A stretch of DNA of 64,000 nt from Escherichia coli. Its GTDB lineage: Bacteria > Pseudomonadota > Gammaproteobacteria > Enterobacterales > Enterobacteriaceae. Within the stretch, counting starts at the first letter, position 1; the number at the start of each line of letters is the position of its first letter. The translations under genes were made by a program, and so were the position numbers. The notes beneath the pieces are model-generated. The model saw only the letters and a list, made by a program, of their open reading frames with translations, was not told where the DNA came from and did not search any database. Shown here one piece after another: positions 43,930 through 44,050 of this stretch. Location: assembly GCF_003790525.1 (NCBI RefSeq), contig NZ_CP033635.1, one strand, 5' to 3'.

Positions 43930-44050
43930 CTTACCTTTCGTTTCATTTCACTTGGTGATGTCTTTCGTTGATTAAAATCTATAGAAAAGAAACTGAAAGT
44001 TCAATGGAGAAAAAAGAAATAAAACGAAATTTGTGATCATTGAAAGAAAA
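43930..44050. promoter_or_regulatory. agaS promoter region with repeated AgaR-operator-like CTTTCGTTT/AAACGAAAG motifs
   Basis: CTTTCGTTTCATTTC, TCTTTCGTTG, AAACTGAAAG, AAAACGAAAT, TTGAAAGAAAAG clustered upstream of agaS. Confidence 0.5.

Follow-up and report, generated by a model that had tools for sequence, protein, structure and literature searches.

The control regions of the aga/kba cluster of Escherichia coli raise the question of what function is served by the short CTTTCG/CGAAAG repeats that they carry. In the stretch of 64,000 nucleotides analysed here (the window), such repeats were seen both upstream of agaS and between the divergent genes kbaZ and agaR, and the original prediction interpreted them as binding sites for AgaR, the DeoR-family repressor. 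As described below, the repeats are very probably operators of AgaR (gene at 49496–50305) acting at the promoters of agaR (PR), kbaZ (PZ) and agaS (PS). AgaR operators at these three promoters are already known and were described in 2004.

Gene content of the aga/kba locus

The open reading frames of the window and their NCBIfam assignments revealed a complete aga/kba cluster on the minus strand and agaR on the plus strand (Table 1). This gene is divergent from kbaZ-agaVWEFA, with agaS-kbaY-agaBCDI further downstream, and its product scores 466 bits as an AgaR equivalog, for which the NCBIfam cut-off is 260 bits. The window strain retains agaW, agaE, agaF and agaA intact (44231–47460), without the deletion of about 2.3 kb by which agaW and agaA are truncated in K-12, and would thus be expected to possess the complete pathway for GalNAc and GalN. 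Beyond agaR on its right side (50360–52879, minus strand) the sizes and order of the reading frames, compared with the K-12 annotation, correspond to yhaV (154 aa) and prlF (111 aa), a toxin-antitoxin pair by the K-12 annotation order, followed by garD (523 aa).

Among 5426 complete E. coli genomes, 5410 contain the 801 bases that surround the agaS upstream array, and the sequence of strain SMS-3-5 is 100% identical here. In the E. coli genome collection, the 248-bp control region between kbaZ and agaR matches at 5828 places, which are distributed over 5321 records with up to four per genome (e.g. Nissle 1917, NZ_CP058217.1). About a tenth of the E. coli records carry a second, similar kbaZ-agaR region, possibly as part of a duplicated or paralogous cluster.

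Table 1. Features of the aga/kba locus, in window coordinates. OA and OB sites are the probable AgaR operators; promoter elements are predicted.
Feature	Coordinates	Strand	Sequence	Remarks
agaI	38819–39586	-		
agaB, agaC, agaD	39587–41686	-		
kbaY	41853–42713	-		
agaS	42726–43880	-		
Weak copy	43924–43932	+	CTTTCGCTT	Escherichia-only; 11 bp from OA1; column identity 0.30
OA1	43934–43953	+	CCTTTCGTTTCATTTCACTT	PWM 28.5 bits; blocks of 0.93–0.97 identity in 73 sequences
Copy near predicted PS start	43962–43970	+	CTTTCGTTG	Escherichia-only; column identity 0.43; PWM <8 bits
Putative PS core promoter	43976–44004	-		-35 TTGAAC 44004–43999; 17-bp spacer; -10 TAGATT 43981–43976
OA2	43984–43999	-	CTTTCAGTTTCTTTTC	PWM 16.7 bits in the window, 21–25 bits in most other genera; conserved block
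OA3	44014–44030	-	ATTTCGTTTTATTTCTT	PWM 24.7 bits; 1 mismatch to the 24-nt consensus; block identity 0.91
Candidate CRP site for PS	44032–44047			Conserved TGTGA half 44032–44036; poor right half
Distal AgaR-type box	44170–44191	-	GCCTTTCTTTTTCTTTCTTTTT	PWM 21.1 bits; T-tract of the agaA (kbaZ operon) intrinsic terminator
Terminator hairpin	44188–44213	-		After agaA stop; RNA fold -10.6 kcal/mol
agaA	44231–45385	-		Stop codon 44231–44233
agaV, agaW, agaE, agaF	45361–47980	-		
kbaZ	47967–49247	-		
OB1	49281–49298	+	TCTTTCGTTTTGTTTCAG	PWM 27.0 bits; CTTTCG invariant in 72 sequences
OB2	49321–49337	-	CTTTCGTTTTATTTTTA	PWM 23.6 bits; block identity 0.91; between CRP site and kbaZ
CRP site	49349–49364		TCTGA-TCTGAT-TCACA	9/10 matches to TGTGA-N6-TCACA; nearly invariant; between OB2 and OB3
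OB3	49365–49381	-	CTTTCATTATGTTTCTT	PWM 22.5 bits; block identity 0.94; upstream of CRP site
Look-alike	49386–49396	-	CTCTCGTTTCA	Non-conserved, in variable linker; column identity 0.26
Putative PR core promoter	49424–49453	+		-35 TTGCAT 49424–49429; -10 TTAATA/TAATAG 49448–49454
OB4	49456–49479	-	AAACTTTCGTTTCATTTCGTTTTG	PWM 27.9 bits, strongest kbaZ-agaR operator; 0 mismatches to the 24-nt consensus; block identity 0.98
Copy beside OB4	49480–49487	-	CTTTCGTA	Escherichia-only extra; 11 bp from OB4 head; column identity 0.41
agaR	49496–50305	+		DeoR-family repressor gene; NCBIfam AgaR equivalog; Pfam HTH_DeoR and DeoRC

Number of repeat copies and chance expectation

The copies were counted in the agaA-agaS intergenic region upstream of agaS (region A) and in the kbaZ-agaR intergenic region (region B). 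Four exact copies of CTTTCGTTT are present in the 64 kb of the window (43935+, 49282+, 49329- and 49468-), against 0.75 expected, and all of them lie within these two regions. The shorter CTTTCG/CGAAAG is found exactly in region A at 43924, 43935 and 43962, always on the plus strand and only twice inside 43930–44050, and in region B at 49282 on the plus strand and at 49332, 49471 and 49482 on the minus strand. The reverse-orientation units of region A are all degenerate (AACGAAAT at 44022–44030, CTGAAAG at 43993–43999 and TTGAAAG at 44040–44046). The four to six copies in both orientations originally predicted for each region are thus literally present in region B, but in region A only if these degenerate reverse copies are counted. 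Nor is the second array the denser one, as had been thought: about 6 units occupy 123 bp in region A and about 7 occupy 206 bp in region B, which exceeds region A in exact copies and not in units per base.

Repeats of this kind could be a by-product of AT-rich, T-tract-rich intergenic DNA with no specific function, since the motif, mostly T with an occasional C or G, has low complexity, a terminator T-tract reaches 21 bits with the operator PWM (see below) and loose versions are common, the 9-mer at one mismatch being found 38 times in the whole window versus about 20 expected. However, when each AT-rich intergenic region was shuffled alone 2000 times with its dinucleotides preserved, the observed counts were almost never attained. 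Allowing up to one mismatch, the 14-mer TTTCRTTTYRTTTY was observed 5 times in region B against 0.02 expected (0 of 2000 shuffles as high) and twice in region A against 0.03 expected (4 of 2000 shuffles as high); for CTTTCGTTT, also with up to one mismatch, the corresponding values were 5 against 0.23 in region B and 6 against 0.46 in region A, with 0 of 2000 shuffles as high in either case. A frequency no higher than expected for AT-rich DNA had been named as the outcome that would speak against the repeats, and the enrichment outlasts these local shuffles. In addition, the sites form the most conserved non-coding columns among the 72–73 aligned sequences, and a PWM derived from other genera matches only the aga regions in 64 kb, as detailed in the next section. 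The motif arrays are non-random and are no effect of AT-rich DNA: shuffles, conservation and PWM specificity rule out a chance origin, to which we attach practically no probability.

Conservation, consensus and specificity of the operators

With AgaR as the query, 80 orthologous loci were fetched, all carrying agaR in conserved synteny, from Escherichia, Citrobacter, Klebsiella, Raoultella, Kluyvera, Enterobacter, Salmonella arizonae/diarizonae, Yersinia, Serratia, Buttiauxella, Pantoea, Mixta, Cedecea and others. When the distinct sequences were aligned, 72 for the kbaZ-agaR region and 73 for the agaS upstream region, seven operators of about 20 bp emerged that are conserved in position and sequence across these 72–73 Enterobacterales loci (about 70 species), three of them upstream of agaS (OA1–OA3) and four between kbaZ and agaR (OB1–OB4). 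The repeating units are therefore sites of about 20 bp, such as C-TTTCG-TTTCA-TTTCA-CTT, rather than lone 9-mers, and their cross-species consensus, CTTTCGTTTyrTTTCanTT, is non-palindromic, with TTTC cores directly repeated at 10 bp and a weaker 5-bp period. Identity to the window reaches 0.85 in the operator columns of region A versus 0.48 in the remaining columns (Mann-Whitney p 7e-15), and 0.92 versus 0.61 in region B (p 2e-11). The copies at 43924, 43962, 44040–44046, 49386–49396 and 49480–49487, which the original prediction probably counted, show no conservation outside Escherichia (identity 0.26–0.44); in all, seven operators are conserved and about five copies are confined to Escherichia.

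The specificity of the motif was assessed with a PWM trained solely on non-Escherichia orthologous sites, with which the window was scanned on both strands. Every match of at least 8 bits in the 64 kb falls within the two aga intergenic regions. In the orthologous loci, which amount to 1.5 Mb, matches of at least 14 bits number 537 inside aga control regions and only 12 outside, eight of these 12 having a local explanation. Four sites at this threshold were seen in 61 of 74 kbaZ-agaR regions and three to five in 63 of 73 agaS upstream regions, the sites being co-conserved with agaR across species in the manner of a regulog. In Citrobacter and relatives (L008, L016, L026, L028, L030, L035 and L060), an AgaR-type box CnCTTTCGTTTTCTTTT of 16–20 bits is placed about 1060 bp after the agaR start and about 250 bp past its stop, which suggests an extra AgaR-regulated gene downstream of agaR in those genomes, absent from E. 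coli.

The published 24-nt AgaR consensus is reportedly WRMMTTTCRTTTYRTTTYNYTTKK. In this form it matches the window without mismatch at 43932–43955 (+), at OA1, and at 49456–49479 (-), at OB4; at up to three mismatches there are six matches in 64 kb, all in the aga regions, versus 0.09 expected.

A closer inspection of the distances between operators did not support the roughly helical spacing that had been proposed. The centre-to-centre distances of the conserved operators are 45, 31, 36, 44 and 95 bp, and a Rayleigh test for helical phasing of the centres gave p values of 0.2–0.67 for periods of 10–11 bp (0.93–0.95 with the weak copies added). What is conserved is the exact spacing and not a common helical phase, the 10-bp periodicity sitting inside each operator.

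AgaR as the probable binding protein

The identity of the neighbouring gene, the identity of the sites with those of K-12, their conservation together with agaR and the literature all agree with the reading of the repeats as operators of a DeoR-family AgaR. At each of the seven conserved operators, K-12 and the window have the same DNA: across the kbaZ-agaR region their identity is 99%, every difference being placed outside the operators, and the core of the agaS upstream region is the same at OA1–OA3. The weak copy CTTTCGCTT reads CTTTCACTT in K-12, with two nucleotides differing across 43924–43933. Binding of AgaR to the agaR, kbaZ and agaS promoters of K-12, reported for whole promoter regions, is attributed to Ray & Larson 2004 where that work is cited in PMC3668189 and PMC4694137, agaA and agaS are constitutive in an agaR deletion (PMC3668189), and PMC12226905, which also cites Ray & Larson 2004, mentions how CRP and AgaR sites are organised within the aga cluster. 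Moreover, a 20-nt site from PkbaZ, CTTTCGTTTCATTT(T)CGTTT, confers AgaR-dependent repression on a synthetic promoter (PMC8667592, Table S3); this site is nearly identical to 49457–49476 (-) of the window, essentially OB4.

The motifs might instead, or in addition, be bound mainly by another protein, either a repressor paralogue of the DeoR family, for example GatR or TagR, or the C-terminal domain of the RNA polymerase alpha subunit, acting through UP-element or A-tract curvature. The predicted TagR operators of E. coli Nissle share a CTTTC/GAAAG core (CTTTCAAAATGAAAG; PMC12226905), and OA3 (AAAAAAGAAATAAAACGAAAT) is located at the UP-element position of the putative PS. However, the TagR boxes are inverted repeats and the sites of the window direct ones, the motif accompanies agaR in all 80 loci, AgaR binding and derepression by agaR deletion have been reported (PMC3668189), and a lone site suffices for AgaR-dependent repression (PMC8667592). 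A main binder other than AgaR is therefore improbable; a paralogous DeoR regulator, or a UP-element role of OA3, may form an additional layer but would not displace AgaR.

Arrangement of the operators at PS, PZ and PR

The three promoters were assigned on the basis of conservation and CRP-site position and not by a promoter scan; their hexamers are weak. A sigma-70 consensus scan of both regions returned zero minus-strand promoters, PS and PZ thus not being reported, and its only two candidates, on the plus strand at 49299–49342 (TTGATA-17-AAAAAT and GTGAGA-16-GATAAT), lie inside the PZ region, are aimed at agaR and overlap conserved blocks; they may represent an alternative or additional agaR promoter or a reflection of the AT-rich operators. 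Since the hexamers are weak and were missed by the scan, the overlap of operators and promoters described below rests on predicted start sites.

At PS, the predicted hexamers, as read from the sequence, both fall inside conserved blocks (43968–43992 and 43995–44004). OA2 would occupy the spacer between them, with 21 bp from the -10 element to OA2 in 71 of 73 sequences, and OA3 would lie just upstream of the -35 element, at a distance of 30–31 bp from OA2 in 64 of 73. On the other side, OA1 is found in the agaS leader, downstream of the putative start and antisense to agaS transcription. Beyond OA3, a TGTGATC block of 0.90 identity is separated from this operator by 4 bp in 72 of 73 sequences, and its TGTGA half at 44032 may belong to a CRP site for PS.

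The kbaZ-agaR intergenic region has a length of 245–251 bp in 72 of 74 species (49248–49495 in the window). OB1 is placed on the kbaZ-proximal side of PZ, antisense to kbaZ, at 55 bp from OB2 in 66 of 72 sequences. The OB2-OB3 spacing is 44 bp in 72 of 72, and the CRP site between them keeps distances of 19 bp from the head of OB2 and 25 bp from the head of OB3 in 72 of 72. For a CRP-dependent promoter, the start cannot be closer than about 41 bp on the downstream side of the CRP centre, so OB2 must overlap the PZ core promoter, with OB1 either at the start or further downstream. The PZ -10 element can be read in this area in two alternative ways, TATTTT at 49328–49323, which would place CRP at about -41.5, or TATCAA at 49305–49300, with CRP at about -62. 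The kbaZ gene is a CRP target by genomic SELEX (PMC3105977). PS and PZ share a common layout: an operator in reverse orientation is placed downstream, and two forward ones are placed on the core promoter and upstream beside CRP, respectively.

At the opposite end of the region, OB4 follows directly downstream of the putative PR -10 element, and both PR hexamers lie in conserved blocks (49421–49430 and 49436–49454), the spacings to OB4, of 20 and 32 bp, being fixed. A conserved GAAAGG (49440–49445) in the PR spacer may be a half box, designated OBx. Inter-operator spacing is evolutionarily constrained (OB2-OB3, OB1-OB2 and -10 to OA2), whereas the linker between OB3 and the PR -35 element shows no sequence conservation and ranges from 39 to 46 bp in length; the invariant module spacings and the variable linker indicate that each of the two modules, PZ and PR, is rigid in itself, while the distance between them can vary.

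The location of some sites would also fit a role of the repeats in RNA, as leader elements of the agaS and agaR mRNAs instead of DNA operators: OA1 lies in the predicted agaS leader, OB4 in the predicted agaR leader, and the distal box described below is transcribed as a terminator U-tract. However, most sites fall inside a core promoter or further upstream, they point both ways with respect to transcription, their conservation is strand-independent and without covariation, and an Rfam scan of 43700–49700 returned zero RNA families. These observations make a function in RNA very improbable.

An AgaR-type box in the agaA terminator

A further match to the operator PWM is located at the far end of region A, after the agaA stop codon. 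The T-tract of the intrinsic terminator of agaA reads CCTTTCTTTTTCTTTCTTTTT and reaches 21 bits. This stretch (44170–44191) was considered as a plain fourth operator and dropped as such, the box being the terminator T-tract; it was kept as a candidate for a dual role. The equivalent box, CCTTTCTTTTyCTTTCG, is found directly 3' of the hairpin in 57 of 73 loci and is nearly invariant from Yersinia to Escherichia, its K-12 version including CTTTCG. In contrast, the sequence of the hairpin is only 40–60% conserved while its structure is kept: the orthologous hairpins have different stem sequences and a median of -15.4 kcal/mol. Generic terminators give no score with the AgaR PWM, and this, together with the near invariance of the distal box, raises the possibility that the box doubles as an AgaR operator. 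We put forward only tentatively that the T-tract serves both as terminator and as a distal auxiliary operator for PS, a dual role that appears rather unlikely at present; if AgaR did bind there, looping between the box and the PS operators would be conceivable, as would a coupling of termination or read-through in the kbaZ operon with repression of the agaS operon. How far the distal box lies from OA3 depends on the lineage (most genera, 102 bp; Enterobacter, 47 bp; the window, 159 bp), which argues against strict phasing. The presence of a conserved AgaR-type box in the agaA terminator T-tract may be new.

Between the agaA terminator and PS, the window carries a REP-like palindromic element (GCCGGATGCGGCG...CGCATCCGACA) at about 44076–44160, the stretch 44076–44125 being wholly unlike K-12. 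Insertion of this element would have increased the separation of OA3 and the distal box from about 102 bp to 159 bp.

Proposed mechanism

We propose that AgaR controls PR (agaR), PZ (kbaZ-agaVWEFA) and PS (agaS-kbaY-agaBCDI) through OA1–OA3 around PS, OB1–OB3 around PZ and its CRP site, and OB4 on the PR start region. In the absence of inducer an AgaR tetramer would occupy these sites and block RNA polymerase at the core promoters, where it would also bracket, or compete with, CRP and the alpha C-terminal domain; at PR, AgaR would repress its own synthesis. During growth on GalNAc or GalN, AgaR would be released by a ligand produced under these conditions, probably a sugar phosphate that binds to the DeoRC domain, after which cAMP-CRP would activate PZ and probably PS. 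AgaR is cited as a tetramer in a passage of PMC10991401, and such a tetramer would make cooperative binding or looping plausible. In this scheme the sites themselves are observed in position, number, orientation, conservation and specificity, and we infer the occlusion or looping and the identity of the ligand, together with the hexamers and start sites on which they would act.

Comparison with known systems

GlpR and DeoR are oligomeric DeoR-family repressors with several operators per promoter, which overlap and flank the core, with CRP co-regulation and with a sugar-phosphate inducer that binds at DeoRC; their operators are palindromic (inverted repeats of 20 bp and 16 bp, respectively), and long-range looping is documented for DeoR. 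The aga system has the multiple operators per promoter and CRP in common with them, but the AgaR sites are direct TTTC repeats at 10 bp and not palindromes. The AgaR1 and AgaR2 regulators of Streptococcus (PMC4694137, PMC5018945) carry the same name and act in the same pathway of GalNAc/GalN utilisation, yet they belong to the GntR family, recognize unrelated palindromic motifs and have no homology to the enterobacterial AgaR.

TagR, from the tagatose cluster of E. coli Nissle (PMC12226905), resembles AgaR in being a DeoR-family regulator divergent from its operon, with a CRP site and operators of CTTTC core, and the likeness of the tagatose cluster to the aga cluster is remarked on in passages by the authors of PMC12226905. 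It differs in that tagO1 and tagO2 are 19-bp sites with inverted CTTTC/GAAAG arms, in having two operators versus seven, and in its inducer.

The aga regulon operators of K-12 at PR, PZ and PS represent the same locus, with the same genes and the same sequence at the seven conserved operators; K-12 is without the intact agaW-E-F-A segment that the window strain has, and otherwise nothing essential differs. The main result is thus the rediscovery of a local regulon of textbook level, whose AgaR site has been used since 2004 as a model transcription factor site. To this the present analysis adds a cross-genus map of the copies under selection (seven conserved, about five Escherichia-only) and the finding that the geometry of the PZ module (OB1-OB2-CRP-OB3) is invariant while its link to the PR module is flexible. 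The distal terminator box, a third addition, and the cross-genus geometry may exceed the published K-12 description; all three additions could be of use in dissecting the operators or in designing expression systems that respond to GalNAc or tagatose.
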